A model generated the notes under the pieces. That model was given only the letters and a program-made list of their open reading frames with translations, ran no database searches and was not told where the DNA came from. A DNA stretch of 32,000 nucleotides, from contig JALHOH010000002.1 of assembly GCA_022843095.1 (NCBI GenBank), positions 450,001 to 482,000 on the forward strand, read 5' to 3'. Shown piece by piece: positions 7,244 to 27,875 of the stretch. How positions within the stretch are numbered: position 1 is the stretch's first letter; each line of letters opens with the position of its first letter. This DNA is from Candidatus Saccharimonadota bacterium (GTDB lineage: Bacteria; Patescibacteriota; Patescibacteriia; 2-12-FULL-60-25). The translations under genes were made by a program, and so were the position numbers.

Positions 7244-8251
7244 ATGGACACCTCTGCATTTGACTATTATCTCCCAACCGAGCGCATTGCGCAAAATCCT
7301 GCAAATCCACGAGAATCTGCTCGGCTTTTGGTTATGAATCGCAAGACGGATGTCCTGCAAGACCGTACCATCGCAGATCTTCCAGACCTTTTGTCGCCGG
7401 GCGATTTGCTGGTTTTTAATGATAGCAAGGTGTTTAAGGCCCGTCTCCACGCGACCCGCGAAACCACAACGTTCGAGGTGTTTCTCTTGCGACCCGTCGA
7501 ACACACGACGCAGTGGATCGCGTTGCTGCAACCCGCACGAAAACTCTCACCCGAAGACACCCTCGTCTTGGCAGACGGAACGACGGTCACCCTTCACGAA
7601 AAACGATCCGACGGAACCTGTGTGCTTGAGACGCATCGCTCTGCAGACGCGATGTTCGCGGTATGTGACACCTATGGCGAGGTCCCGACCCCGCCCTACG
7701 TCGAGCAAGGGACCGATCTGAACGCCTACCAAACAGCCTACGCAAAAACAACAGGAAGCGTGGCAGCCCCAACGGCGGGGCTGCATTTTACCCCTGCGCT
7801 CTTGGATACCCTAGAAAAACGCGGCGTCCAGCGCGTGTTTGTGACGTTGCACGTAGGACTTGGCACCTTCCGCCCCATGAAAACAGACACACTGGAAGCG
7901 CACGTGATGCACGAAGAATGGGCGCACGTTTCACAAGAAACATTGGATGCGATCACCGCAACGCGGGCACGAGGCGGACGCGTCATCGCGGTCGGAACGA
8001 CCACGGTACGCGCGCTGGAAAGCGCCTGTGGAACCCCGTTTTCGGGATACACACGGCTCTTCATTACCCCTGGACACACTTTCACTTCCTTTGATGCGCT
8101 CATCACTAATTTCCACCTCCCAAAATCCACCCTCCTCGTGCTCGTGTCCGCATTTGCCGGCCGTGAACGCACCCTAAACACCTACCAACACGCGATCGAT
8201 CAGGGATACCGCTTTTACAGTTTTGGCGATGCGATGTTGATTACGTCGTAA
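7244..8251 (+). CDS. queA: S-adenosylmethionine:tRNA ribosyltransferase-isomerase
   Basis: Start chosen at MDTSAFDYYLPTERIAQNPANPRESARLLV, the canonical QueA N-terminus. Other QueA motifs are PPYV, AAPTAGLHFT, HVGLGTF, GGRVIAVGTT and FYSFGDAMLI. Confidence 0.92.
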   Translation: MDTSAFDYYLPTERIAQNPANPRESARLLVMNRKTDVLQDRTIADLPDLLSPGDLLVFNDSKVFKARLHATRETTTFEVFLLRPVEHTTQWIALLQPARKLSPEDTLVLADGTTVTLHEKRSDGTCVLETHRSADAMFAVCDTYGEVPTPPYVEQGTDLNAYQTAYAKTTGSVAAPTAGLHFTPALLDTLEKRGVQRVFVTLHVGLGTFRPMKTDTLEAHVMHEEWAHVSQETLDAITATRARGGRVIAVGTTTVRALESACGTPFSGYTRLFITPGHTFTSFDALITNFHLPKSTLLVLVSAFAGRERTLNTYQHAIDQGYRFYSFGDAMLITS

Positions 8252-9461
8252 CATGATACGCCTCCAGGACTGTTCGGAGATGCGCCTCCCAGGTATGGCG
8301 TTCGTGAATCCGTGCGCGTCCTTCGCGCCCCATCGCATCACGCACCTCTTTGGGCGCAGCTAAAAACCGGCGCAGGTTGCGCACCCAATCATCAACATCA
8401 CCAGGCGTCACCAAATACCCGTTCTCGCCATCTGTCACAAGCTCCGGATTCCCTCCAATCCGTGTGGCAAGACAAGGGATCCCGTCCGCCATCGCCTCAA
8501 GGAGAGATCCGCTGCAGTTTTCGTACATGAGCGTTGGCAGGAGCACCGCCTCGGCACGCGCACGCACGCGAGCTAATTCCGCCGGCGGAAGAAATCCCAC
8601 AAACTCAAGATTCGTGGCGCCTAATTGGTCCGCAAGTGTGCGTAATGCAGATTCTTCCGGTCCACGTCCAACGAACTTTACCGGCAATTCTGGAATCCGC
8701 GCCGCCGCTTCCACAAACGATCGAAGTCCTTTTTCGGCAGACAATCGTCCGGCATACAGCACATACCCCCCTCCGCGTGGCGCAGGAGCCGCAGGAAACG
8801 CCGTAGGATTTGGCGCATAGGTGAGTTTTCCCGGCGGCTGTCCCCAATCCTCCATCTTTTCACGCATGAACTTTGAAGGACACAAAAACGTCTGCACCGT
8901 TTTTTCATAGGAAAGACGCGTTTTTGCGAGCCCCATCTCCAACGCAGCAAGGACATTTGGCAGAAGCGCTTCGTTTACGCACCGATACCGCACGACATTG
9001 CGATAATCTCCCGTTTTACACCGTTCACAGGGTGCACCTTGCGTGTACATTTTGTAGTTCGCGCATCCGACCACTTTATAATCATGCAACGTCTGGACGC
9101 AGCGGATCCCTCGTTTTCGAATGGGCGCCAAAACCGAGGTCGAAAGATGGTTGTAGATATTGTGCAAATGCACCACGTCCGGCTTGATGCGATCCAAGAG
9201 CTCCGCCATCGCGCGACGCGCCTCCAAATTCCAAAGGTAATTCGCAGCAATCACGGCATCCGTACCGAGCCCATGGCGCTTGCCCAAATCATATCGCGTC
9301 ACAAATGCACCGGCATCCGCGCTTGCCAGATTCTTTTCTGAAGTCGTGGAAAACGCATGGACTTCATGTCCTGCTTCACGTTGTTTCTGCATGAGCTCGT
9401 GCATGTACACCTCTGCACCGCCATGGAGATCAAAAAACTTGTTTACGTGGAGGATTCGCAT
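8241..9461 (-). CDS. glycosyltransferase family 4 (GT-B)
   Basis: N-terminus MRILHVNKFFDLHGGAEVY. The C-terminal half has the EX7E-like region (PTLMYENCSGSLLEAMADGIPCLATRIGGNPELV). A Cys-rich insertion (C..C-x2-C ... C) is present. Confidence 0.85.
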   Translation of the reverse strand: MRILHVNKFFDLHGGAEVYMHELMQKQREAGHEVHAFSTTSEKNLASADAGAFVTRYDLGKRHGLGTDAVIAANYLWNLEARRAMAELLDRIKPDVVHLHNIYNHLSTSVLAPIRKRGIRCVQTLHDYKVVGCANYKMYTQGAPCERCKTGDYRNVVRYRCVNEALLPNVLAALEMGLAKTRLSYEKTVQTFLCPSKFMREKMEDWGQPPGKLTYAPNPTAFPAAPAPRGGGYVLYAGRLSAEKGLRSFVEAAARIPELPVKFVGRGPEESALRTLADQLGATNLEFVGFLPPAELARVRARAEAVLLPTLMYENCSGSLLEAMADGIPCLATRIGGNPELVTDGENGYLVTPGDVDDWVRNLRRFLAAPKEVRDAMGREGRARIHERHTWEAHLRTVLEAYHVTT

Positions 9462-10525
9462 ACTTCGCCGTACACACGCGCATACGCCTGCGCCATGGTC
9501 CCAAGAGAAAACCGCTCGCGCACAATCCGCTGCGCCCGCTTTGCCTTCTCTATTGCCCGTGCCGGGTCATCCAGAGACTGTGCAATCGCGGCCGACCATC
9601 CCGCCACATCGTCCGGCGCGACAAAGGTGGTTGAATCTTCGGTAAACGTCTCGTGCAACACCGGAAGATCCGAAGCGATCGTTGGAACACCCGAGGCCAT
9701 CCCTTCGAGCAATACGAGCCCCTGGCCCTCTTCACGCGACGGAAACAGGAGCAGATCGACATCGGGAAGGAGCGGTGCGATATCCGGTACCGCTCCAACA
9801 AATCGGACGCGCGGCAAGATACCCAACGTCTGCGCAAGCGCCCGCAAACGGTCCTCCTCGGGCCCCTCCCCGATCACGGTGAGCGTCCAGGGACGTTTCA
9901 CCTGGGCACACGCGCGAAAGACCGTCGCAAAGTTCTTACTGGGAACCAATCGGCCGATCACGGCACAACGCGGGATATCCCGGCGCCCCTGCGGACGCGA
10001 TGCGATAAATCGGGAAAGATCGATGCCTAAGCGCACAACCCCCGTCTGCGCCTCAGTCAACCCATACCGCTTGATTGCGAGCGTGCGCAATTCTTCCGAA
10101 ATTGCGAGGACCCGATGTGCGCGTCGATAACATCTCCCACGAAGATATGAACGGATTACCCCGTCTTCCGGCATATGGCTATGAATCGTCGAAATCCAGG
10201 GATAACGCCGGTCCCGCAGCGCCGCGATCCCTCCCCAAACATCCATGCCAAGATGTGTGTGCAACACCTCAGCGCGTGTTCGGCGCATGTGCTCGGAAAT
10301 CCAACCGGATAACGCAAGCCGTCGGTACGATCCGCCGATCGAAGGCGCCACCGCAACCGAGACACCCGTCGCACGAAACGCCGCCTCCAATTCTCCGCCC
10401 ACCGCCGCGGCGACGGAAGGGATCACGCCAAACGTCGGAAGCGTCCGACAAAGATCCAAGAGCATCCGCTCGGCGCCCCCCAAACCCAGCGACCACGTCG
10501 TGAGCAAAACGCGTTTAGACGTCAT
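9443..10525 (-). CDS. glycosyltransferase family 4 (GT-B)
   Basis: N-terminus RVLLTTWSLGLGGAERMLLDL. The C-terminal region reads FPSREEGQGLVLLEGMASGVPTIASD. It overlaps both neighbours by 11-19 nt, which indicates an operon. Confidence 0.85.
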   Translation of the reverse strand: MTSKRVLLTTWSLGLGGAERMLLDLCRTLPTFGVIPSVAAAVGGELEAAFRATGVSVAVAPSIGGSYRRLALSGWISEHMRRTRAEVLHTHLGMDVWGGIAALRDRRYPWISTIHSHMPEDGVIRSYLRGRCYRRAHRVLAISEELRTLAIKRYGLTEAQTGVVRLGIDLSRFIASRPQGRRDIPRCAVIGRLVPSKNFATVFRACAQVKRPWTLTVIGEGPEEDRLRALAQTLGILPRVRFVGAVPDIAPLLPDVDLLLFPSREEGQGLVLLEGMASGVPTIASDLPVLHETFTEDSTTFVAPDDVAGWSAAIAQSLDDPARAIEKAKRAQRIVRERFSLGTMAQAYARVYGEVCESST

Positions 10526-11954
10526 AGGAGGTCAAAAAATCCGGATCGCGTTGGACTTGCTTAGCAAAGAAAAACTGTCCGGCCGCCAGCGCGATCCCGA
10601 CCGGCAACCACCAACGAGCTGTCCAATATGTTGTATCAAACACCTGATACACCGACATCGCGATCACGCCAGCAAGTAAATAGGCAAACGCCGTCCGTTC
10701 GGGGGTCCCAACGATCATCCGCCGCCACTGCTTCCAAAACAACCAGAACCCATTTGCAACAACACCAAGCAAGGCAAGGAGTCCCACGATTCCGGTCTCG
10801 GCTCCCACCTTTTGCAGAACACCATGCGCATCAATCGGCGCTCCAAATTCGATGGTGTACGCATACGTCGAAGCCACATGCGACAGGAATGTTCCCGCCC
10901 CGACCCCGATCCATGGACTTTGTTGAAACACATGCCAGGCGATTTCGTTCACCATCTGCCGCGTGTCTGTGGATCCGCGCACACCGGGAGTAAAAAACGA
11001 TTGCACCAAAAGGAACGCGAACGGCGCAAGCAAAAACGCTGCGTACACCAACAGATCCGTTCGGGAACGGAGATAGGCGCGCCAGATGGTTGCCATCAAA
11101 AACACGCATCCGATCCCCAGCGCGAGCCATGCACTGCGCGCAAGAGTCAAAAGCGCAACCACGGCCATAAATGCCGCCCCAACATACGCCACGGCACGGG
11201 CACGTTCGACGCGCACGAGCGATGCAAACGCCATCGCTGCAGCTGCAGCAAAAATCAACACTTCCGCCAACGCATTATGATTCCCTCCCAATAAATTCAC
11301 CCCACCCAACACGAGAGGACGCGCTCGGTGGATCGTAAAGAGTCCCCCTTCAAACACAAACAGAGACGCGAATCCGTTCATGGCAAAATACGCCCCAATG
11401 ACGGCAATCACGCCAAGCACGACCAATAGTCGTTTCCGCGCATGAATAAAGTTTACCGGGATGAGCACGCAGGTCAGGTACACCAATAACACGGGACGAA
11501 ACGCATATTTGATGACAGCCGCTGCAGAGGGCTCGGTTGCAGATAAAAGCGACAACACATGCGCAGCAACGAGTCCCACCACGGAAAACAGCAGCGGCGC
11601 TTCCGGTTTCCAGTGCCAATCACGTCTGCCACGCCAAAGCGTCAACATGCGAATCCCCCACGCGACAAGCAACATGGCCGCCAACGCCTCGGAAACCTGA
11701 ATATCAATGGAACCCCGCACAATATCCGACACAAACAGGAACTGACCGGCGGGAATAGACACCTGCCAACCCAGCAAAAGCGATGTTCCCACAAATGCGT
11801 ACAACGCCGCATACGGAAAACGCAACACCAAGCCAAACACAATCGCGCCGATCACGGTCACAATCAGCGGCGCGCCTGCTCCAAACGCAGCGGCAAACGA
11901 CGTTCCGATCACGACAAGCAACGCCCCCCACCAAATACGCGGGAGCGATGCCAT
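10515..11954 (-). CDS. O-antigen ligase/polymerase-like (Wzy_C family) polytopic membrane protein
   Basis: About 10-12 predicted TM helices with a large loop carrying the H/R-containing Wzy_C-like region (LARSAWLALGIG...). The start is uncertain. I chose ATG at 11954 (MASLPRIWWGALL); the ORF track starts at GTG 12047. Confidence 0.72.
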   Translation of the reverse strand: MASLPRIWWGALLVVIGTSFAAAFGAGAPLIVTVIGAIVFGLVLRFPYAALYAFVGTSLLLGWQVSIPAGQFLFVSDIVRGSIDIQVSEALAAMLLVAWGIRMLTLWRGRRDWHWKPEAPLLFSVVGLVAAHVLSLLSATEPSAAAVIKYAFRPVLLVYLTCVLIPVNFIHARKRLLVVLGVIAVIGAYFAMNGFASLFVFEGGLFTIHRARPLVLGGVNLLGGNHNALAEVLIFAAAAAMAFASLVRVERARAVAYVGAAFMAVVALLTLARSAWLALGIGCVFLMATIWRAYLRSRTDLLVYAAFLLAPFAFLLVQSFFTPGVRGSTDTRQMVNEIAWHVFQQSPWIGVGAGTFLSHVASTYAYTIEFGAPIDAHGVLQKVGAETGIVGLLALLGVVANGFWLFWKQWRRMIVGTPERTAFAYLLAGVIAMSVYQVFDTTYWTARWWLPVGIALAAGQFFFAKQVQRDPDFLTSYDV

Positions 11955-12136
11955 CCAACCAACGCGAGTCGCCAGTGCCTCCACAAAAGAAGTGTACCAC
12001 AGCCCAAGTGCGTGCAAGCGTTTTCGCAACGATATTCCACAAGGCACACCCGGCGCACAATTTGATGGGATCCATGATCAGACAAGCGACGTTGAACTCG
12101 TCCTCATCTACCGGACAAACTAAAAACGCAGGCAAC

Positions 12137-12166
12137 AGAAAACCCCCGCACCAGTTGGTGCGGGGG
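12137..12166 (-). terminator. rho-independent terminator after lipoprotein A
   Basis: 10-bp GC stem cccccgcacc/ggtgcggggg (12143-12152 / 12157-12166) with a 4-nt loop. On the minus strand TTTTCTGTT follows. The plus-strand side is also T-rich (tgttgtttt). Confidence 0.7.
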
Positions 12167-12181
12167 TGTTGTTTTGAACGA

Positions 12182-13879
12182 TTACGGCGTGATACGCGTG
12201 CCGTCCGGGCACTGGCCACGGTACCAGCGCTCGATCGGCACCGCGAGCCGGATGAACTGCGGGTTCATCCGCGTCGGGTCCGAGTAGATGTCACGGCAGA
12301 CCCCGGTCTGCATCGTGATGTCCTCCATCCCCATGGTGACGGAAGAAATGCCCGCCGTCGTCGCGCTGCGGTGCAGGAACGGCGACCAATCGCGCTTCCC
12401 GGCACCGCAGTACGCGTCGACGATGAGCCATCCCGTCCACCAGGGCTGGACCGCGAGGTTGAGCGCGCCGCCCGGAGGAGCGTTGCGCTCGATCCCGCCA
12501 CTCCCCGCGACGGGCTCCCAGGCACGAAGCGTCCACCCGCTGGGGCAGGCGCCGAAGAGCGCGACGTTCGGAACGATCCGGAGGTCGTTGCACCCGACCG
12601 CGCCATCGCAGAACGACCCAGAAACGGGCACGTCCACGACCGCCGCATCCGCCATGGCGTCCGAGACGACGTCCGCAGACGCATCCATGGACGCCATCGC
12701 GTCTACGACATCGGCGGTCACGTCCGGAGACGCGTCCGCCATCGCATCCGCGGTGGCATCGACTCCGGCTTCCCGCACGTCAGCGACGTCTGCCGCGACG
12801 TCGGGCGCCGCATCCGGCATCACGTCCGCGACCGCGTCCATCCCGGCGTCTGCCACGACATCCGCCATCGCATCCGCTCCTGCCTCGCGCACGTCCGCCA
12901 CGACGTCCGGCTGCACATCCGCTGCCACGTCGGGCTGGACATCGGGCGAGGCATCCACCGCTGCTTCCGCCGCGGCATCCGTCCCCGCCTCGCGCACGTC
13001 CGGCGCATCCGCCTGGACATCCGACGTAGCGTCCGTCGCCATCATCCCGTCTGCCGGCGTCATCGCATCCACGACACCCGCGTCTCCGATCGGCGCCATG
13101 CACGCCAGAACCGCGAAGCAGAGCGTCGAACCCGCGCAGTAATCCGCGCAGGTCATGAGCCCGACGTTGTTGCAGCGATCCAGGCAGAGCAACGGCTGCG
13201 TCGGCAGCACGCACGGGCATCCGGAACGCGCCGCATCCGTCGTGGGAATGACGACGTCCGGAGGTACGACGACGTCGGCCGCCATCATGGCGTCCGCACC
13301 CGCATCCATCGGCATCGCCGCGTCCGCAGGCACCACCACGTCCATCGCCGGAGCGCTGTCCATCATGGCAACGTCCGCGCCGACATCCGCCATGGCATCC
13401 GCCGGGGTCATCGCGTCCGAAGATGCGTCCGCGACCGGCATCCCCGCATCTCCGCATCCGAGCGAGATCGGCTGGCACGAAGACCAGACGTTCATGCCCG
13501 GAAGGCAGATCTGCGCGACGACACAGGTCGCCGTGCTCGCCGCGCACGTCCGCGGTCCATCGACCGCCGCGTTGCAGGGCGAACCGGCCGGGACCTCCAT
13601 CGGCATGCATGCCGAGGCGGCGCGCACATCCGTAGGCAGACAGCGCGACCACCCGAACGATCCGGTCGACGGATCGCGCAAGCAGACGCTGACGCCCTCG
13701 GTGTTGCAGGCGGCCACGCAGGTGGTGGTCCGCCCCTCGTTCGCCATCCCGCACATCCCAGCATCAGCCGGCGGCGGGGTGGTGATCCCCCCATCCGGCG
13801 AACCGGACGGGAAGGGAAAAATGCAGCCGCTCATCCCCATGATGAGCGCGCAGACCAGAACCCAGTACGCGTGTCGCAT
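12182..13879 (-). CDS. secreted Cys-rich lipoprotein A (565 aa) with acidic D/A/V/M low-complexity linkers and the shared C-terminal RG[QR]CP domain
   Basis: Start ATG 13879 is preceded by AAGGAGGAACCA (SD AGGAGG, 5-nt spacer). The signal peptide has a lipobox-like motif: MRHAYWVLVCALIMGMSGC. The C-terminal ~145 aa align with the C-termini of the products of 14129-15706 and 15893-16360. Confidence 0.8.
   Translation of the reverse strand: MRHAYWVLVCALIMGMSGCIFPFPSGSPDGGITTPPPADAGMCGMANEGRTTTCVAACNTEGVSVCLRDPSTGSFGWSRCLPTDVRAASACMPMEVPAGSPCNAAVDGPRTCAASTATCVVAQICLPGMNVWSSCQPISLGCGDAGMPVADASSDAMTPADAMADVGADVAMMDSAPAMDVVVPADAAMPMDAGADAMMAADVVVPPDVVIPTTDAARSGCPCVLPTQPLLCLDRCNNVGLMTCADYCAGSTLCFAVLACMAPIGDAGVVDAMTPADGMMATDATSDVQADAPDVREAGTDAAAEAAVDASPDVQPDVAADVQPDVVADVREAGADAMADVVADAGMDAVADVMPDAAPDVAADVADVREAGVDATADAMADASPDVTADVVDAMASMDASADVVSDAMADAAVVDVPVSGSFCDGAVGCNDLRIVPNVALFGACPSGWTLRAWEPVAGSGGIERNAPPGGALNLAVQPWWTGWLIVDAYCGAGKRDWSPFLHRSATTAGISSVTMGMEDITMQTGVCRDIYSDPTRMNPQFIRLAVPIERWYRGQCPDGTRITP
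12626..13087 (-). repeat. low-complexity acidic repeat region (aa 265-418 of lipoprotein A); three imperfect ~35-38-aa units each starting DVREAG
   Basis: The translation shows DVREAGTDAAAEAAVDASPDVQPDVAADVQPDVVA / DVREAGADAMADVVADAGMDAVADVMPDAAPDVAADVA / DVREAGVDATADAMADASPDVTADVV.... A second D/A/M/V tract lies at 13232-13453. Confidence 0.7.
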
Positions 13880-13957
13880 TGGTTCCTCCTTGTGCGACGG
13901 GTTGGTGAGGCAACGTGCCTCGTTTTCGTTCGTCCTTCTGTGAATGAACGTGCGCTG

Positions 13958-13986
13958 ACCGTAGGCAAAAATGGCAAAAAAGTCAA
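13958..13986 (-). promoter_or_regulatory. putative sigma70-like promoter for lipoprotein A
   Basis: Minus strand reads TTGACT, then 17 nt, then TACGGT. The -35 is good and the -10 is weak (3/6). It lies between the terminator-like hairpin of gene B and the start of gene A. Confidence 0.3.
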
Positions 13987-14020
13987 GGGTCCCCTGCCAA
14001 TTTTTACGCTCAGACAATAA

Positions 14021-14064
14021 GAAAACCGGCGCACCCCCCTGTTTGTGACAGGCGGATACGCCGG
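14021..14064 (-). terminator. probable terminator after lipoprotein B
   Basis: Minus strand reads gCCGGCGtatccgCCTGTcacaaACAGGggggtgCGCCGGTTTTCTTATT. This is a nested stem followed by a T-rich tail, 65 nt after the stop at 14129. Confidence 0.4.
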
Positions 14065-14128
14065 CAAGCGATTGATTCTTCGTAGAATCAGCGGATTTTC
14101 GTGGAGATTCCGCACACTCCGAGATAGT

Positions 14129-15706
14129 TCAGGGGCAGCGGCCGCGGAACGTGGCGTCGAGCGGTGCAAGTGGACGATTGAATCCGCCCCACGTGCACAC
14201 CCGACCCGCATCACTACGCAGCTCTTCGCCTTCCCAGGTCATAGAAGCGATGCCGGCCTCCGAAACTGGACGCCCCTGGAGCGAAGCGGGCCAGGTCACC
14301 CAACGCGCAGATCCAAGATCGGACCCGCAGCGGACGGCGACCGCAGCCACGCCACGCCACGACTCGGGAAGGACCTCCCGGAAGGGCTGCCCCGCGACCG
14401 AATCCCGACGCTCACCGCCAGGACCGAAGACGGAAGTGATCCAGCCCGAGGCACACACACCACAGTTGGTGCAGTTCCCCGGGACATTGAACCACGCGAC
14501 GTCCGATGCGATGCGCAGCTCTCGGGCGACGCCCACCGGCGTTCCGCCCGAGCACCCTTCGTCGATGCTCCCGTCGCAGTCGTCGTCGATACCGTTGCCG
14601 CACACCTCTGCGACCGGCGTTCCCGTCGTGCAGACGTTGAGGGCACCGGCGACGCATCGATCCACGACCCGACGGCAGGCGCCAACGCCGCACTCGGTGG
14701 TGCCGAGCAGTTCGTCGGTCATTCCGTCACAGTCGTCGTCGCGACCGTTGCAGGTCTCTGCCACAGGCGTGCAGGTCGGCGTGGTAGCCGGGCAGGTCGC
14801 GACGATCCCGTCGCAGTTCTCGTCCACGGCATTGCCGCAGACTTCCGCCCCCGTGGGGACGCACGGCGCGGGGCACCCTTCGTCGATGCTCCCGTCGCAG
14901 TCGTCGTCCTGCCCGTTCGAGCAGATCTCCGCGACCGGGGTTCCGGCTACACAGATGTTCGGACCACCCGAAACACACATAGAGACCGTTCGGATACAGC
15001 GGCCAACGCCACAGGTGACATTCCCTTCATCGGTCTGGCCGTCGCAGTCGTCATCGCGACCGTTACACACCTCCGCGGCCGGGATGCACGCGGGCATCAC
15101 CGGACACATCGTGGCAACGCCGTCGCAGTTCTCGTCCACGGCATTGCCGCAGACTTCGGGCGACGAAGGACCGGGAACACACGTCACCGTCCCCTCGCAC
15201 CCCTCGACCTGGCGCTGGCATGCGCCGACGCCGCAAGTAATGCGGACACGGGCGCACACAGCGTCGGTCGGGATGATGACGTCCGTTACCGGAGCGACGT
15301 CAGAGCCATCCGCCGCATCGGTCACAACATCCGCTGACGCGTCCGCTGCACCGCTGCAGGCGCCGGCGACGCAGGTCTGACCCGCGTTGCAGGCGCGCCG
15401 ACACGCACCGCAGTGCGCGACATCCGTCTGCGTGTTCACGCAGGCGCCGCCGCAGGTCGTTTGCCCCTCGGCGCAGGCGCCGGGGACAGATGCCTCCGTC
15501 GGAATCGCGTCCGTTTCCACGGACGCCTCGCGCACCGGAACCGGCGTCACCGCCGTGTCCGGGATCGCATCCCCCACCGCGCCCTCACGGGCAACGGCGG
15601 CATCGGAGAGACGAGCCGCGTCCGTGGAATCGATCAACGACTCCACGTGGCAGCCCGCCAGAACGAGAACCATCGCGGCCAACAGGCCGCACATCCACTG
15701 CTTCAT
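14129..15706 (-). CDS. secreted Cys-rich lipoprotein B (525 aa) with six MopE-like CxxxDDDCDGxxDE motifs and the shared C-terminal RG[QR]CP domain
   Basis: ATG 15706 is preceded by GGGAGGAGAGTTCG. The lipoprotein signal is MKQWMCGLLAAMVLVLAGC (canonical LAGC lipobox). The N-terminal region has a CGGACVNTQTDVAHCGACRRACNAGQTCVAGAC motif. Repeat motifs include EVCNGRDDDCDGQTDEG, EICSNGQDDDCDGSIDEGC and EVCGNAVDENCDG. Confidence 0.85.
   Translation of the reverse strand: MKQWMCGLLAAMVLVLAGCHVESLIDSTDAARLSDAAVAREGAVGDAIPDTAVTPVPVREASVETDAIPTEASVPGACAEGQTTCGGACVNTQTDVAHCGACRRACNAGQTCVAGACSGAADASADVVTDAADGSDVAPVTDVIIPTDAVCARVRITCGVGACQRQVEGCEGTVTCVPGPSSPEVCGNAVDENCDGVATMCPVMPACIPAAEVCNGRDDDCDGQTDEGNVTCGVGRCIRTVSMCVSGGPNICVAGTPVAEICSNGQDDDCDGSIDEGCPAPCVPTGAEVCGNAVDENCDGIVATCPATTPTCTPVAETCNGRDDDCDGMTDELLGTTECGVGACRRVVDRCVAGALNVCTTGTPVAEVCGNGIDDDCDGSIDEGCSGGTPVGVARELRIASDVAWFNVPGNCTNCGVCASGWITSVFGPGGERRDSVAGQPFREVLPESWRGVAAVAVRCGSDLGSARWVTWPASLQGRPVSEAGIASMTWEGEELRSDAGRVCTWGGFNRPLAPLDATFRGRCP
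14549..15157 (-). repeat. intragenic tandem duplication, 2 x ~312 nt (2 x 104 aa), each copy carrying three MopE-like motifs
   Basis: The exact 37-nt string cgtcgcagttctcgtccacggcattgccgcagacttc occurs at 14809-14845 and 15121-15157, an offset of 312 nt. The protein copies aa 184-287 and 288-386 are collinear. Confidence 0.85.
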
Positions 15707-15798
15707 CGAACTCTCCTCCCGGGCTATGCCCGGATTGTTGAAAAATGAACCGAATTCACGAGAAAATCCGTGGTTACGGCTTTCGATCGTGACAAGAG

Positions 15799-15827
15799 AA
15801 TATAGCAGCTTTTTCCGATTTTGTCAA
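15799..15827 (-). promoter_or_regulatory. putative sigma70-like promoter for lipoprotein B
   Basis: Minus strand reads TTGACA (15827-15822), a 17-nt spacer, then TATATT (15804-15799). This is 6/6 and 5/6 matches to consensus. It lies just downstream of the gene C terminator and ~90 nt upstream of ATG 15706. Confidence 0.55.
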
Positions 15828-15839
15828 GCGTCGCTAGAC

Positions 15840-15867
15840 AAAAAAACCGCTTCCAGGACAGAAGCGG
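15840..15867 (-). terminator. rho-independent terminator after lipoprotein C
   Basis: Minus strand reads CCGCTTCtgtcctgGAAGCGG followed by TTTTTTT. It starts 26 nt after the stop at 15893. Confidence 0.75.
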
Positions 15868-15892
15868 GTGCGTCGAATCAGACGCGGAAACT

Positions 15893-16360
15893 TCAGGGGC
15901 AACGCCCCTCGTTGGTGGTGACGAGCCCGACCAGCGGACGGACCACGGTTCCCCAGGCCGGAGGCGCCCAGGGGTCCACGCAGAAGCGCGTGACGCCGGT
16001 CGTGTCGCGACCGCGGAATCGGACGCTGACGCCGCCATCTCCGGCCGTGCGCCCCAGCATCCCCTGGCCCCAACGGTGCCAGTCCGTCCCGCACCGCGCG
16101 CCAACCGCAGCGTACCCACGCCATCCCTCGTCCGTCTCCAGGCGGACGGTGCCGGAACGCTGGCTAAGCTCGACCCCACCCGGGCCGAACACGACCGCCT
16201 CCCATCCCCCAGCGCACGGGGGAAGGGCGCCCAAATTGAGCGAAACGACGAGGGTATTCGGGCCCTCGGTGGCCACCGGCTGCATGGCCGGCGGGGTGTT
16301 CAGGGACTCGACATGGCAGCCCAGCATGAGCGCCACGCAGACAAAAAAGGTGCGTCGCAT
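15893..16360 (-). CDS. small lipoprotein C (155 aa): signal peptide plus the shared C-terminal RG[QR]CP domain only
   Basis: ATG 16360 is preceded by GTAGGAGGTTTCG (GGAGG, 5-nt spacer). The signal is MRRTFFVCVALMLGC, followed by HVESL exactly as in protein B. The rest aligns with the C-terminal domains of A and B. Confidence 0.8.
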   Translation of the reverse strand: MRRTFFVCVALMLGCHVESLNTPPAMQPVATEGPNTLVVSLNLGALPPCAGGWEAVVFGPGGVELSQRSGTVRLETDEGWRGYAAVGARCGTDWHRWGQGMLGRTAGDGGVSVRFRGRDTTGVTRFCVDPWAPPAWGTVVRPLVGLVTTNEGRCP

Positions 16361-16378
16361 CGAAACCTCCTACGCCGT

Positions 16379-16407
16379 GGAGTACCGCATTTCCTGGATT
16401 TGGTCAA
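16379..16407 (-). promoter_or_regulatory. putative promoter for lipoprotein C
   Basis: Minus strand reads TTGACC, then 17 nt, then TACTCC. The -10 is weak (3/6). It would give a very short leader containing the SD. Confidence 0.25.
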
Positions 16408-16583
16408 CCCCTCCCTTGACAGCTCCCTCGCTTTCTGATGTTCTGACACGTCCGACACAACGGACCCGGCTGCGCACTCGCGCGTGCCCGGACGGTTCGT
16501 TTCTACACAAGAAACAAGGCGAGGCGTCCGGAAGGCGCGCGGGGTGAGCTCGGCCGGTCATCACTGACCCCGAGGAGGCTCTC

Positions 16584-16814
16584 ATGCATACTCGTTTGCA
16601 TCGTAGCGACGATATGAACCCGCAGGCCGCGCACTCCGTGGCTTGCCTTCCGCAACCCACGCTCGAGCTGCTCACGCCGCACGGTTCCATGCCGGACACG
16701 CGCTTGAACACTCTGACCAAGCTCATCTGCGGCTACCAAGGCTGCAGCCACAACGCCCCGCCAATCCCCTTCCGCGCCCCCTCGCGTCTCCGGACGCGCT
16801 GGACGCTGAACTGA
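16584..16814 (+). CDS. hypothetical small protein (76 aa), divergent from lipoprotein C
   Basis: ATG 16584 is preceded by GAGGAGG with a 5-nt spacer. The stop at 16812-16814 is followed 6 nt later by a strong plus-strand terminator. Third codon positions are GC-rich. I recognised no family; there are 3 Cys and no signal peptide. Confidence 0.4.
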   Translation: MHTRLHRSDDMNPQAAHSVACLPQPTLELLTPHGSMPDTRLNTLTKLICGYQGCSHNAPPIPFRAPSRLRTRWTLN

Positions 16815-16820
16815 CGCGCA

Positions 16821-16847
16821 CGCCGACCATCTCTGGTCGGCGTTTTT
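16821..16847 (+). terminator. rho-independent terminator (plus strand)
   Basis: CGCCGACCAtctcTGGTCGGCG followed by TTTTT. Orientation is clear: the T-run is on the plus strand only. It sits 3 nt from the stop of the convergent TrmB-like gene. Confidence 0.7.
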
Positions 16848-16849
16848 CG

Positions 16850-17635
16850 TTATCCGCGTTGTTTTCCCCATCCTGGCGGTGGTTCCCAAGGACGTGCGCC
16901 CGTCCACGCCAATTGAAACAACGCTTTCATGAGCTCCGCGATCTCGACACTTTCGATAACAAGCCCAATGCCAATCGACTTCAGACTCATCGCGTACACA
17001 CGCTTGTCCGTGATCGCCAAATTCCCCGAAAACGGGAACGACTGATACGGAACGACGCGCACATCCACGACCGATGTATCAAAATACCGTGGCTGCAACC
17101 CCGGCTTAATTGCCATGAGTGCGCGCCCCCGCATGCGACTGGTCAACTGAATACGCTCGTCTTCACGCACGGCGGCGAGTTCAAGCATCGGCTCATCCAC
17201 GGCAAAAAACTCCCACAATTCCCCCGGCGTTCCGGCAATTTCCCGTCGAATTTCCCCGATTGCGGCTTCCCCTTCAAAAAACCGCACCTTCGGCTTGTCC
17301 GATGCGTTGTTGTAGATCGCAAGAAGTCTAGGCAACGCAAGTTCGAGTCGTGCTTTTTTTGCATCCACCTTGGACAGCTCGCGCGTGATGATTGAAAGGA
17401 GACGTTGTGGCGTTTCCGCGGCGAATAACGTCTTTTTTCCCTTTTCAAACGTCGTCACAAGCCCATGTCTGGACAGTGCCTCGATCATCACATAGCAGGT
17501 GGTACGATTCACGCCCGATTTTTTACCAATCTCCTGGATGCTCGTCGGCCCAAGCTCAAGCATCGCCATGTACACGTCGATTTCTTTCCCGGATAACCCA
17601 AGCTCCGTCAAACTGGTTTTGATGTCATCGATCAT
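16850..17635 (-). CDS. TrmB-family-like HTH transcriptional regulator
   Basis: The N-terminal winged-HTH pattern is LTELGLSGKEIDVYMAMLELGPTSIQEIGKKSGVNRTTCYVMIEALSRHGLV. It is followed by a ~180-aa C-terminal domain. This is the last gene of the long minus-strand operon. Confidence 0.75.
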   Translation of the reverse strand: MIDDIKTSLTELGLSGKEIDVYMAMLELGPTSIQEIGKKSGVNRTTCYVMIEALSRHGLVTTFEKGKKTLFAAETPQRLLSIITRELSKVDAKKARLELALPRLLAIYNNASDKPKVRFFEGEAAIGEIRREIAGTPGELWEFFAVDEPMLELAAVREDERIQLTSRMRGRALMAIKPGLQPRYFDTSVVDVRVVPYQSFPFSGNLAITDKRVYAMSLKSIGIGLVIESVEIAELMKALFQLAWTGARPWEPPPGWGKQRG

Positions 17636-17641
17636 AAAAAA

Positions 17642-18766
17642 TCACCATTGCGTCAAAAGCGGCAAGGTCTCCCGCGCTGTCCGTTCCCAGGTATACTGCT
17701 TCGCCCACGCGATCCCCGCCTCGCGACGCTCCAGCGCCCCGGCCGGATCATCTACGGCACGCGTGATCTGCTGCACCAGCGAATCGATGTCACGCGGATC
17801 AAACCAAAGAGCATGCGGTTCCCCCACGACCTCCGGGAGGGAGGCGATCCAGGAACAAATGACCTGCGTTCCACAGGCTAATGCCTCCAAAGGCGGGATC
17901 CCAAACCCCTCATACCATGCCGGATGCACAAGCGCTGTCGCACGATTCAAGAGCGCCGCCTTGTCGTCTTCGTTCACATACCCAAGCAGACGAATCTGCG
18001 ATTTGGCCGGCGACGCCGCAATCGCGGCCTCGATCTCCTCGAACCCAACGCCGGTAAGTCCCGCAAGCGCCAAATGCAACGGATCTCCTTCGCCACGTAA
18101 CTGCTTAAACCGCGTAAATGCCTCCACGATCATCTTCACGTTTTTCTTGCGTTCCAACCGACCGACGAACAAGAGGTACGGCTCTGGCAACCGGTACCTG
18201 TCCACGATCGGCGTCGCATCCGCTTTTGCGATGGGGCGATAGCGCGCATGATCGATCCCGTTTGGCGTCACAAAAATCTTGTCCGGATGCGCTCCATAAA
18301 ATTCGATGATCTCGCGCTTCGAAAACTCGGACACGGTCAAAATCCGTGATGCCCGCTTTACGATATCCTTGGTCGCCCAATCGTGATACCAGCGCTGAAT
18401 CGGCTTGTAGAGTTCGGGTAATCGCGCAAACCCGACGTCATGAATCGTCACGACAGAACGTGCTGGGATGGCGCGCGGCAAAACATGCGCCGGCACATAC
18501 AACACATCCGGCGGACTGCGATACATTTCCCAAGACAGGCGCGTCTGCGTCCACAAATATTTCGGCGGCCAAGCAAGTCGCATCTCATGCCAATTCTTCG
18601 GCCCTTTTTCGAGCCCCATCATGAGCGGCTCGTTGGAATACAACAACCACGAATGCGCGTCTGATTCGGCAAACTGCTTGAGTTGCTGAATCACATGCCA
18701 CGCATACCACTCAACCCCCGTCTTTTCACGGCGGTTGGCGCGGGAAGCCTCAATCCCGATAAGCAT
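17642..18766 (-). CDS. glycosyltransferase family 4 (GT-B)
   Basis: N-terminus MLIGIEASRANRREKTGVEWY. The C-terminal region reads HPAWYEGFGIPPLEALACGTQVICS, typical of GT4/GT1-type mannosyl/glucosyltransferases. Confidence 0.85.
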   Translation of the reverse strand: MLIGIEASRANRREKTGVEWYAWHVIQQLKQFAESDAHSWLLYSNEPLMMGLEKGPKNWHEMRLAWPPKYLWTQTRLSWEMYRSPPDVLYVPAHVLPRAIPARSVVTIHDVGFARLPELYKPIQRWYHDWATKDIVKRASRILTVSEFSKREIIEFYGAHPDKIFVTPNGIDHARYRPIAKADATPIVDRYRLPEPYLLFVGRLERKKNVKMIVEAFTRFKQLRGEGDPLHLALAGLTGVGFEEIEAAIAASPAKSQIRLLGYVNEDDKAALLNRATALVHPAWYEGFGIPPLEALACGTQVICSWIASLPEVVGEPHALWFDPRDIDSLVQQITRAVDDPAGALERREAGIAWAKQYTWERTARETLPLLTQW

Positions 18767-25566: not shown

Positions 25567-25736
25567 ATTCTACGCGTATCGTGACCGATCCCGGCGCCCT
25601 TGACAAGAGCATGTGACGATACTGCATCGATCCCGGTATACTGGTGGATGATGCCGATCGGAGGGCTCGACACGTAAGCCGCCCAACTCTTCGCGTGTGG
25701 GCGCCTTGCGTTTCGTGCGGCACGCGCTATTTTCGT

Positions 25737-27875
25737 ATGCCAGACTCCCTCCAGTACCGCCTTGCAGAAATAGAGGTCACCGCCTCTATCGCTGATGAAA
25801 AAATCATCGGCCTCTTTCGATACGATGCGGGCGATAAATCAAAGCTCGCCGGAAAAAAAGCCCCGACCCTCGTCATTATCGCGGAGATCGCTTCAACGCT
25901 GTATCTCTACGAACAGCTGTTAGACACGATCAACGAAACGGCAGAACAGGTGCGTCTGCTCACGACCGGTGTGGACACCGATCCCATGACCCGGTTTGAA
26001 AAACTGGTCACCCGCTTGAATGAAGCGGTCCAGCGGTTTTCGGAAAAAGAACCCACGCCGATCGCTTGGAACCGCGTAAACATCTTTGTTCTGGAGCTCT
26101 CTGAAGGCGGCCAGCTTTGCCTTTCCGGCATCGGACGCCTGTGCAATATCTTTTTGCAAAAACAGGCGGATGGCACGACAAAAATGTTCGATTTGTTTGG
26201 TTCGCTGGAACAGCCCGCAGAGCCAGATCCAAAAAAGCCGTTCTCCTCGTTTATTTGCGGAGACATGAAAGAAGGTGATCTTTTGTTTGCTGGGACCATG
26301 AACTTTGAGCGGTACCGGAACGAACTCGCCATCGCAAATACCCTCAAAAGCACCCCTCCCGTTGCCGCCGCACAAGAGATCTCCAAAGAACTTGAACGAA
26401 AAGGCGTGCAAGATGATTTTGCCGGGATCATCATTTCCTGTACCGCCGCCCAAGCGATCCCTGCCCCGACCGTCATCGCAACAGAACCGGAAACGCTTTC
26501 GGTCAAAAAAAGCACGGCATCCGTAGAAAAACTCTACGAAGAAGAGCGCGCCGCAGAAACCATGCTGGGCCCCGCCCTTTCGCCCACCGCAGTTCATCCT
26601 GCAGGAAAACCTCTGGCCTCGCTCACAGAACGCGCAAAAACATGGGTGCAAGACCTTAAAGCCCAACGCGCGATGCAGCAGTCGCGGCCGGCAACCAAAG
26701 GCCGAGCAGACGACATCGCCATCAACAGCATGCGCGGGATGCATGCAGGCGCAGGATTTGCCCTGACTCTCAAACACAAACTCCTGATTGGCGTGGGTGT
26801 AGTGGTTGTTGTCGCAGCCCTTGGCGGGACGTGGTGGTATCGATCCGCACAAAAAGCGGCAGAAGCACAGGCAGCGTGGAATGTAATTTTTGATCAAGCA
26901 CAGGACAAAAAGAACCGTTCCGATGCGAGTGCTGTGTATGGGAACGAAGATCAGGCACGCAAACTCCTCCAAGAAGCCGAATCGCTGCTAAACGGGCTGG
27001 ACGGCTCCACTCCTGATCGCGCAACCTCCAAGCAAACGCTCTTGGGAGAAATCGCAGAAATGAAGACAAAATTGCGCCGCGAGGTGCGCATTGAGGCACC
27101 AGAACAGCTGGTTGCGCTCCCCATGAATGCGCCTGCCGGGTCACTGCAGCAGCTCGCGCTCTTCAAAGGAAACCTCTACGCCGTGGATGGGCCGGGACTC
27201 TCGGTAATGCAAGTAAACCCCACGACCAAGGAACAGAAAAAATTCTCGCTGTCCCCGGAACAGGTCCCTGCCGTTGGACTTGCCGCTGGAACTGATTCGC
27301 TCATTCTCGCAACCGCGGGGAACACCTGGGCCTCCATTTCACCCAGTGGGAATACCGTAAAACCACTTACCATTTCCGCAGCGAAATCCTCTGGTACACG
27401 CGGGATCGCCATCTATAACCGGCGACCTTACACCCTGGATCCAGACGCAAATCAAGTCTGGCGTTGGACAGCGGCAAGCGGTGGCTACGGAGGGGAAACG
27501 GGGTACATTAAACAGCTCAGCACTTCTCTTGGTAACGCGGTTGGCATCGCCATCGACGCCAACATTTACGTCGCATTGCAAGATGGTCGCGTTATCCGCT
27601 ACTACCAAGGCAATGAAGACCCATGGTCCCTTGGCGCAGCAGATCCGCCGGTAACCAACATTCACGATGTCTGGACCGCGGCCGATCTCGATCGAGTCGT
27701 CGTCACCGATCAAGCCGGTAAGCGCATCCTCGTGTATCGCAAACAGGATGGACGCCTGGTCGCACAACTCACCTCCCCTGTCCTCGAAGGACCAACACGC
27801 GTCACGGGCGACGCCACGACCAAAAAACTCTACGTGATCGACGGCAACAAAATCCTGGGATTCGATCTTCCATAA
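25737..27875 (+). CDS. hypothetical bitopic membrane protein: PP2C/SpoIIE-like (degenerate) N-domain, TM helix, C-terminal beta-propeller-like repeats
   Basis: Start chosen at ATG 25737 (MPDSLQYRLAEIEV). A TM helix LIGVGVVVVVAALGGTWWY lies at ~26781-26840. From ~27160 there are six ~40-aa units such as NLYAVDG, IAIDANIYVALQDGRVIRYY, RVVVTDQAGKRILVY and KLYVIDGNKILGFDL. Confidence 0.65.
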   Translation: MPDSLQYRLAEIEVTASIADEKIIGLFRYDAGDKSKLAGKKAPTLVIIAEIASTLYLYEQLLDTINETAEQVRLLTTGVDTDPMTRFEKLVTRLNEAVQRFSEKEPTPIAWNRVNIFVLELSEGGQLCLSGIGRLCNIFLQKQADGTTKMFDLFGSLEQPAEPDPKKPFSSFICGDMKEGDLLFAGTMNFERYRNELAIANTLKSTPPVAAAQEISKELERKGVQDDFAGIIISCTAAQAIPAPTVIATEPETLSVKKSTASVEKLYEEERAAETMLGPALSPTAVHPAGKPLASLTERAKTWVQDLKAQRAMQQSRPATKGRADDIAINSMRGMHAGAGFALTLKHKLLIGVGVVVVVAALGGTWWYRSAQKAAEAQAAWNVIFDQAQDKKNRSDASAVYGNEDQARKLLQEAESLLNGLDGSTPDRATSKQTLLGEIAEMKTKLRREVRIEAPEQLVALPMNAPAGSLQQLALFKGNLYAVDGPGLSVMQVNPTTKEQKKFSLSPEQVPAVGLAAGTDSLILATAGNTWASISPSGNTVKPLTISAAKSSGTRGIAIYNRRPYTLDPDANQVWRWTAASGGYGGETGYIKQLSTSLGNAVGIAIDANIYVALQDGRVIRYYQGNEDPWSLGAADPPVTNIHDVWTAADLDRVVVTDQAGKRILVYRKQDGRLVAQLTSPVLEGPTRVTGDATTKKLYVIDGNKILGFDLP

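Follow-up and report, generated by a model that had tools for sequence, protein, structure and literature searches.

A previously undescribed four-cysteine C-terminal domain family in a Patescibacteria lipoprotein cassette and in hydrolase-headed relatives

Introduction

The SH3b modules of lysostaphin-type M23 peptidases, the LysM/CBM50 modules, and the choline-binding repeats of GH25 lysozymes are the described systems that come closest to the element considered here, a C-terminal four-cysteine domain carried by three neighbouring lipoprotein genes (A, B, and C) in a 32,000-nt stretch (positions 450,001 to 482,000, hereafter the window) of contig JALHOH010000002.1 from a bacterium of the Patescibacteria (candidate phyla radiation, CPR). 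The analogy is one of function only. Like those modules, the domain is an independent, non-catalytic unit of about 100 aa that lies C-terminal to M23 or GH25 heads, which are exchangeable; unlike them, it possesses four invariant cysteines, has no similarity to them in sequence or fold, and occurs in lipoproteins that are often enzyme-free and in which a Cys-rich stalk stands between the head and the domain.

A second group of described systems consists of MopE and the Myxococcus Cys-rich repeat proteins (PF11617; NF041328; the acidic double-disulfide repeat NF033662), whose motifs build the stalk of protein B and of many other family members; these models cover the stalk only, while the C-terminal domain is a separate globular beta-sandwich. 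In the CPR, Peribacteria encode large, very Cys-rich extracellular proteins with weak similarity to the Myxococcus Cys-rich repeat proteins, and a function in attachment has been proposed for them (Anantharaman et al. 2016, PMC4736985). Compared by description, the stalks of B and its relatives belong to the same CPR theme of Cys-rich surface or exported proteins, although the Peribacteria proteins are far larger (about 1,655 aa on average) and no shared C-terminal four-Cys domain is described for them; the domain is mentioned neither in that paper nor in the other literature found.

Two further likenesses concern the fold. The Ca-dependent CBM60 and CBM36 modules (PDB 2xhh, 2xfd) are small beta-sandwiches and are the top Foldseek matches of the modelled domain of C over nearly its full length, but the match is not significant (E 0.25-0.49, template modelling (TM) score 0.35-0.37, root-mean-square deviation 7.5 Å) and the domain is not assigned to these families. 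Likewise, the C-terminal domain of type IX secretion system (T9SS) cargo, represented by RgpB (PDB 7pq4), is a beta-sandwich at the extreme C-terminus of diverse secreted proteins. In this case, Foldseek gives only E 1.4 and no T9SS model matches; moreover, the present domain is found in lipoproteins, in organisms from which no outer membrane is known, and in stand-alone copies.

A shared C-terminal domain with four invariant cysteines

A first-pass annotation of the window, made from its letters alone, had placed three lipoprotein genes on the minus strand and aligned their C-termini on common landmarks (C-x-x-GW, W-x-G...C-G, a third Cys, and a terminal RG[QR]CP). The list of open reading frames (ORFs) has the three genes where they had been placed, all these landmarks are present, and the coordinates proposed for the domains (12185-12619, 14132-14524, and 15896-16273) agree with the envelopes of the hidden Markov model (HMM) and with the modelled core. 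The claim of homology stands on significant statistics. Specifically, BLASTP of the C-terminal segments gives 37% identity between B and C (E 1e-15), 28% between A and B (E 2e-8), and 29% between A and C (E 2e-7). Moreover, a profile of 41 homologues from elsewhere, from which the three sequences of the window were left out, matches exactly A (E 8e-31), C (E 1.7e-27), and B (E 8.7e-27) among 442 six-frame pieces of the window, at 88-102 bits; nothing else in this six-frame search reaches E<1, and a fourth copy was not found. On these alignments, chance or artefact is excluded as the source of the similarity. The landmarks of the wider family (Cys register, aromatics, D-W, P-x-x-P-L, terminal G-x-C-P, and terminal position) are all present in A, B, and C.

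With a length of about 125 aa, the domain has four cysteines that are invariant in 44 of the 44 aligned members, are spaced by about 41, 37, and 27 residues, and lie on different strands; the domain alignment contains no CxxC and no His cluster. In the numbering of protein C, the conserved positions of this alignment comprise a G after the first Cys followed by the aromatic W53, the aromatic F58, S-x-P-G, W80-x-G, D-W97, A-G-x-x-S-I-x-L-x-G-x-E-L, C-x-D, P-x-x-P-L, and the terminal G-x-C-P. The four invariant cysteines presumably form two disulfides. When the signal-peptide and lipidated cysteines are excluded, the mature proteins contain 26 (A), 46 (B), and 4 (C) cysteines, all even numbers, which is what complete disulfide pairing of the exported proteins would give. 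Disulfide formation and exposure at the surface are both inferences.

An exhaustive HMMER search of 1.84 billion cluster representatives retrieves 58 proteins at E<=1e-3. Three of them (P0044, P0047, and P0050) are false positives, i.e., repetitive proteins with several matches to short stretches of the profile, and their removal leaves a family of 55 clusters at 50% identity, A, B, and C included; the first-pass description of a three-member family is thus right for the window and too narrow overall. Exhaustive searching was needed since word-indexed searching is insensitive to this family: in 5.8 billion proteins, a three-sequence profile recovers only C itself, and a 44-sequence profile adds one further member. 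The pattern of one subfamily occurs at 3 loci in 241 million metagenome records and at 6 in 185,579 species genomes, while a genome-collection scan with C and a metagenome scan with C and P0004 gave no match. Judged from these searches, the family is real but rare. A phage-lysin origin was also considered and was dropped when a scan of viral contigs gave no match.

The domain occupies the extreme C-terminus in all 55 clusters, followed by 0-16 residues and usually by none. A lipobox is found by strict pattern in at least 33 of the 55 clusters and by eye in several more, and most of the others are N-terminally truncated fragments; many short members consist of a signal peptide and the domain alone. 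One cluster includes PIP60911.1, which is annotated as Candidatus Uhrbacteria.

The first-pass annotation did not recognise the domain, and database comparison agrees with it. The domains of A, B, and C have no match in Pfam-A 2025, NCBIfam 20.0 (2026), PADLOC, or PHROGs; all 44 family domains, searched against Pfam at E<=1, return scattered single-member noise only; and the profile reaches at best E 1 against PDB sequences. The known cell-wall-binding families of Pfam (SH3b, LysM, PG_binding_1-3, SLH, CW_binding, and SPOR) match neither A, B, and C, nor the 44 family domains, nor 20 full-length members. Two AlphaFold2 models, set up independently with the family alignment, are confident both for the C domain (predicted local distance difference test (pLDDT) 94.4, predicted TM score (pTM) 0.87) and for the A domain (pLDDT 94.8, pTM 0.88), and they show an identical order of eight main strands and one short helix in a compact beta-sandwich. 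Foldseek against 350,542 PDB chains gives at best E 0.25 and TM 0.37 for the C model and E 0.24 and TM 0.28 for the A model, and the best match in BFVD (E 0.38) is not significant either. The CBM60/CBM36 lead obtained with the C model is absent from the match list of the A model and is treated as noise. The domain is, accordingly, a previously undescribed family without a relative in the PDB, a claim that stops short of a new fold.

Three old lineages in a conserved cassette

Each of the three domains is nearer to a protein from elsewhere, at about 33-38% identity, than to its two neighbours in the window: the nearest relatives are P0012 and P0018 for A, P0019 and P0007 for B, and P0026 and P0004 for C. 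Moreover, the trio is kept elsewhere. A 2.4-kb metagenome piece of the Joint Genome Institute (L020) carries C-, B-, and A-like genes in the order and orientation of the window, namely a C-like lipoprotein of 154 aa (38% identity, E 5e-30), the B-like MopE lipoprotein P0019 (41% identity over 211 aa, E 1e-45), and the first part of an A-like lipoprotein; its first Cys-rich module can be aligned to that of A (35% identity, E 7e-20). On another contig (L015), the closest homologue of C (P0004) is followed by a B-like MopE lipoprotein. A recent tandem triplication is ruled out by the best matches outside the window and by the preservation of the trio elsewhere; by sequence comparison, A, B, and C are three old paralogue lineages in a conserved C-B-A cassette and not a local expansion.

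As the first-pass annotation had pointed out, B and C share the residues that follow the lipidated Cys (C-HVESL), a match that is seen in the ORFs and also as a DNA repeat at 15634-15656 and 16300-16322. The C- and B-type proteins of L020 (131-595 and 779-1747) carry CYHLEYG and CYHNVYG at this place, and the segment thus differs between genomes. The match within one genome suggests concerted evolution or gene conversion, or else a constraint on the shared segment.

Partner domains and exchange of catalytic heads

Twenty long family members were scanned against Pfam for partner domains. Peptidase_M23 is present in 10 clusters, in six at or above the Pfam gathering score and in four below it (25-27 bits, E about 1e-5), and an eleventh, N-terminally truncated cluster is recognised by its HLH motif. 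A Glyco_hydro_25 (GH25) head is found in one cluster, and Peptidase_C39_2 in one cluster by Pfam, with a truncated relative seen by eye. Hydrolase or peptidase heads near the lipid anchor are therefore carried by 14 of the 55 clusters and by 14 of the 21 members of at least 400 aa. In these proteins, MopE-type Cys-rich modules and acidic linkers usually come after the head, and the domain is always at the end. The upstream layouts of A, B, and C also differ from each other, in line with the earlier description of a common module on variable N-terminal stalks.

Two syntenic loci reveal how the parts of these proteins evolve. Upstream of nusA-yidC-secD-secF-DUF8128, related Patescibacteria differ in the head: an M23-headed member of 1022 aa is encoded in L021 and a C39-like-headed member of 742 aa in L004-L006, and the two types of protein have only the MopE stalk and the C-terminal domain in common. 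By this comparison, the catalytic head is swapped on a constant chassis of stalk and domain at one chromosomal locus, as one would expect if the domain served for targeting or anchoring. The second locus, with the order tig-ychF-comEC-[family gene]-recA-ftsK...lspA-trmB, defines a syntenic subfamily in seven related metagenome-assembled genomes (MAGs; L003 and the six loci L009-L014 of the genome collection); a metagenome locus (L017) whose domain is 100% identical to that of the L003 protein P0006 was not counted apart. The neighbouring genes at the comEC-recA locus are 80-92% identical, the family protein 42-78%, and its domain 66-82%; the higher identity of the domain relative to the whole protein indicates that the domain is the constrained part and that the stalk is fast-evolving.

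At the loci inspected, no conserved processing gene adjoins the family genes. At one of them (L016), P0012 has on either side a signal-peptide protein (8542-9819 and 11161-12468); the two have a coiled-coil middle, a Gly-rich beta-like C-terminal half, elevated GC content at third codon positions (GC3), and no family assignment; they may be further surface components.

Proposed function and alternative explanations

The first-pass annotation had suggested a shared binding or assembly function at the distal end of lipid-anchored proteins; we infer a role of this kind as well, and the M23, GH25, and C39-like fusions lend it support. By analogy with the accessory modules of wall hydrolases, we tentatively favour, with less than even confidence, a function of the domain in binding to, or targeting, a glycan or peptidoglycan of the cell envelope. 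In such a scheme, Lgt and LspA would lipidate the N-terminal Cys, and each protein would hang from the outer face of the cytoplasmic membrane, with stalks and acidic linkers that set the C-terminal domain at differing distances from it. Specifically, C would be a lipid anchor with the domain, B would present the domain on a Cys-rich stalk with MopE motifs of the Ca type, and A would present it on Cys-rich modules and acidic linker. The domain would then bind an envelope ligand, likeliest a glycan (peptidoglycan, or a wall or surface polysaccharide) of the own or of the host cell; in the relatives, it would direct the M23, GH25, or C39-like head to this ligand, and the C-B-A trio would act jointly at the surface.

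Several observations weigh against envelope binding. About three quarters of the family clusters have no recognisable hydrolase domain, and A, B, and C themselves lack a catalytic head. Among the PDB chains, Foldseek finds no module for carbohydrate or peptidoglycan binding with a significantly similar fold, and the CBM60 top match of the C model (E 0.25, TM 0.37) is not repeated with the A model. Lastly, three co-encoded paralogues with one domain fit an assembly role equally well.

Assembly, one of the two suggestions of the first-pass annotation, is the main rival. The domains of A, B, and C would bind each other, or self-associate, to form a hetero-oligomeric surface structure, onto which the domain of the hydrolase-bearing relatives would dock the enzyme. 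The preservation of three old lineages in one order in two or three unrelated contigs is typical of the subunits of a complex, the greater nearness of each domain to its orthologue elsewhere than to its neighbours is consistent with distinct subunit roles, and C is barely more than the domain on a short tether. On the other hand, many genomes have only one family gene at a locus, as in each of L002-L014, which rules out hetero-oligomerisation as the general role, and fusion to cell-wall hydrolases is more typical of modules that target a substrate. Considering both sides, assembly appears somewhat unlikely as the function of the domain.

The co-occurrence of the domain with M23, GH25, and C39-like heads, together with the many short members made of a signal peptide and the domain, could also reflect regulation or inhibition: the domain would occlude or regulate the head in cis, and stand-alone forms such as C would be trans inhibitors, or immunity-like proteins, that protect the own wall. 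This is improbable, as hundreds of residues of Cys-rich stalk and acidic linker part the head from the domain, the cassette of the window contains no hydrolase, and an immunity protein does not usually share homology with any domain of the toxin that it counters.

The invariably extreme C-terminal position, the conserved terminal G-x-C-P, and the diversity of the cargo would suit a C-terminal sorting, secretion, or attachment signal that a machinery for export or anchoring reads and perhaps removes. No T9SS C-terminal or other sorting-domain model of Pfam or NCBIfam matches the domain, however, and the RgpB likeness is as poor as described above; neither an outer membrane nor a T9SS is known from Patescibacteria; the proteins already have a lipid anchor; many members are the domain alone, without cargo; and no processing gene accompanies the family genes. 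A sorting function is, in this light, very unlikely.

A metal or redox role, in which the four invariant cysteines would serve as ligands together with the "metal-binding" MopE motifs (PF11617) to which the domain is frequently fused, is the least likely of all, as the cysteines are spaced on different strands in the manner of the structural disulfides of an exported protein, CxxC and His clusters are missing, the mature Cys counts are even, and PF11617 is an acidic motif of the Ca-binding type, for which metal binding is only putative.

Genes and signals of the cassette

The features of the cassette region are collected in Table 1.

Table 1. Features of the cassette region, in coordinates of the 32,000-nt window; the three lipoprotein genes share the minus strand.
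Feature	Position	Strand	Description and basis
Terminator-like hairpin and T-run after gene A	12142..12167	(-)	11-bp stem, 9 GC pairs
Gene A	12182..13879	(-)	565-aa lipoprotein; ORF call and ATG at 13879
C-terminal four-Cys domain of A	12185..12613	(-)	HMM, AlphaFold2 model, BLASTP against B and C
Gene A, acidic D/A/V linker 2	12614-13093	(-)	Segment composition
Gene A, Cys-rich module 2	13094-13234	(-)	Composition and Cys positions
Gene A, acidic linker 1	13235-13453	(-)	Segment composition
Gene A, Cys-rich module 1	13454-13822	(-)	Composition and Cys positions
Gene A, signal peptide and lipobox	13823-13879	(-)	MGMSG-C19
Gene B	14129..15706	(-)	525-aa lipoprotein; ORF call
C-terminal four-Cys domain of B	14132..14524	(-)	Cys C418, C460, C504, C524; end FRGRCP-stop
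Gene B, MopE-motif repeat region	14552-15262	(-)	PF11617 six times, E 2.4e-24
Gene B, Stig1/MXAN_6577-like Cys module	15353-15478	(-)	PF04885, 5e-8
Gene B, signal peptide and lipobox	15650-15706	(-)	LVLAG-C19, then acidic linker
Sigma-70-like promoter candidate for B	15799..15827	(-)	TTGACA, 17-nt spacer, TATATT, TG extension; 11/12 consensus matches, consensus scan only
Terminator-like hairpin and T-run after gene C	15847..15867	(-)	
Gene C	15893..16360	(-)	155-aa lipoprotein; ORF call
Four-Cys domain of C	15896..16264	(-)	Cys C49, C90, C127, C154; end NEGRCP-stop
Gene C, signal peptide and lipobox	16316-16360	(-)	LMLG-C15, then 17-aa linker, then domain only
Small ORF, 76 aa	16584..16814	(+)	GGAGG Shine-Dalgarno site; terminator hairpin and T-run 16820-16843

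All three N-termini have a positive n-region, a hydrophobic h-region, and a lipobox-like Cys, i.e., the features of a lipoprotein signal, in agreement with the earlier assignment of A, B, and C to the lipoproteins. The lipoboxes were assigned by the pattern [LVI][ASTVI][GAS]C only: that of B (MKQW...LVLAG-C) is canonical, and those of A (MRHAYW...MGMSG-C) and C (MRRTFF...LMLG-C) have Met at -4/-3 and Gly at -1. Neither of the lipoprotein-processing enzymes is encoded in the window, and Peptidase_A8 (LspA) is encoded near a family gene in a related Patescibacteria locus.

The open frame of gene A extends over 12182-14017, and its likeliest start is the ATG at 13879, with AAGGAGG as a Shine-Dalgarno site 6 nt ahead of it. 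The first-pass annotation had described A as made of Cys-rich modules and acidic linkers, and two of each are found. The two linkers (73 and 160 aa) are rich in D, A, and V and have essentially no basic residues; with about 230 acidic aa in total, they are probably disordered. The core of the A domain (12206-12592), with the invariant cysteines C445, C491, C528, and C557, is followed by a 7-aa tail (DGTRITP), and an extra Cys pair (C424/C430) lies just upstream. The deposited product of gene A (P0002) is 419 aa long and begins with MPVADASS, 146 codons downstream of the ATG at 13879, which leaves it without the lipobox signal peptide and without one Cys-rich module (window 13439-13879); L020 retains this module in its A-like gene (E 7e-20). 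From these comparisons, the start given for gene A in the public record is probably wrong.

Protein B reaches 85.7 bits against PF11617 (repeats of the type C-x-x-x-D-D-D-C-D-G-x-x-D-E; cutoff 27) in 6 stretches and thus belongs to the MopE family, an assignment that concerns its stalk only; it remains below the cutoff of NF041328 (39 bits, cutoff 100). The MopE-like repeats earlier reported for B are therefore borne out, with a Stig1-like Cys module in addition, and the Pfam scan finds no MopE motif in A or C. Protein C, as first described, is essentially a signal peptide and the domain, joined by a 17-residue tether; a protein identical to it is encoded on a Logan contig of SRR31730576.

The small ORF of 76 aa (MHTRLHRSDDMNPQ...) is convergent with trmB, lies inside the GC-rich stretch, and has a GC3 of 0.81; it has no match in Pfam, PADLOC, or PHROGs, and it is uncertain whether it is a member of the cassette or spurious. 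Rfam and tRNA scans of the window are empty. For two large ORFs outside the cassette, at 640-2175 (-) (511 aa) and 25644-27875 (+) (743 aa), Pfam offers no match; a relative (L022) has the longer protein at 50% identity.

Host, composition, and lateral transfer

The MreB protein of the window is 86-94% identical to proteins of Patescibacteria group bacterium, Candidatus Uhrbacteria, and Candidatus Magasanikbacteria, and the genes around the cassette, nearly all on one strand, encode DUF4012, TrmB, GT2 and GT4 glycosyltransferases, a Wzy-like ligase, QueA, a MacB-type ABC protein, TsaB, and XseA, a gene content in keeping with such a genome. The deposited proteins stem from a contig of 525,788 bp. 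By these protein identities, the host belongs to the Patescibacteria, in the vicinity of Uhrbacteria and Magasanikbacteria. A Myxococcota origin, prompted by the MopE and MXAN_6577 motifs and by the high GC content, is unsupported, as the named relatives and the syntenic contexts are those of Patescibacteria. Elsewhere in the family, the GH25-headed member sits on a contig of uniformly 67% GC, with aldehyde dehydrogenase, aminotransferases, IS110, and biotin-type genes, which does not look CPR-like and indicates that the family is not strictly confined to the CPR. Five MAGs (L009-L012 and L014, binchicken/TPA assemblies) bear the title "uncultured Gammaproteobacteria bacterium", yet they share synteny, and clearly one lineage, with a MAG that bears the title Patescibacteria group bacterium; at 80-92%, their RecA and FtsK also match those of L003, a Patescibacteria-like contig on which the gene order is alike. 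The Gammaproteobacteria titles look like a labelling artefact.

The stretch from about 12.1 to 16.85 kb has 65-67% GC, compared with 52-60% around it, and the GC3 of A (0.83), B (0.77), and C (0.83) exceeds the 0.48-0.67 of 20 flanking genes, a strong contrast that points to lateral acquisition of the cassette. Family genes are also enriched in GC3 relative to their neighbours where they are syntenic and vertically inherited (L003, L004, L013, and L016), and the bias may therefore be partly intrinsic to the family genes and need not speak for transfer alone. The cassette is not flanked by direct repeats, tRNA, or integrase. The nearest relative retrieved (L022), with an MreB of 94% identity, shares synteny with the window between 18.8 and 27.9 kb, a segment that runs from mreB over DUF4012, the GT2 genes, and tsaB to the 743-aa protein; on the cassette side beyond mreB, its genes are wholly different (HD_4, HU, LOG, L28, S12, S7, and EF-G). 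As the divergence begins right after mreB, the relative offers no empty site for comparison, and the divergence marks the block of the window at 8241-18766 (GT4, TrmB, cassette, Wzy, and GT4) as a variable cell-envelope region. Lateral acquisition of the cassette is likely but unproven; it is weakened by the GC3 enrichment in vertically inherited loci, by the lack of repeats, tRNA, and integrase, and by the lack of an empty site.

The contrast in GC3 with the flanks and the presence in unrelated contigs are also the basis of a bolder reading, in which the domain would be a new-fold host- or wall-recognition module of Patescibacteria and a few other bacteria, the cassette would be a laterally mobile three-protein adhesion complex that helps the episymbiont to attach to its host, and the relatives with hydrolase heads would be its enzymatic counterparts, directed by the module to breach the wall. 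We regard this combination as speculative and rather unlikely.

Significance

Patescibacteria account for much of bacterial diversity and live in attachment to other cells, yet hardly anything is known of the surface proteins by which they attach. The domain described here is new as a defined family without a Pfam or NCBIfam entry and with a confident fold model that has no PDB neighbour; it is tied to M23, GH25, and C39-like hydrolases, which makes its function testable. Further results are the swapping of heads at one locus and the conserved cassette of three lipoproteins, perhaps a unit of surface function. The family is new and its role is familiar, that of a terminal module accessory to surface proteins and wall hydrolases. 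Were the domain only a structural or oligomerisation unit, the definition of the family would still be useful, at an ordinary level of interest; if recognition of the wall or of the host surface is true, the domain would supply a new targeting module for engineered lysins and a way to identify host-interaction proteins in uncultured CPR bacteria.

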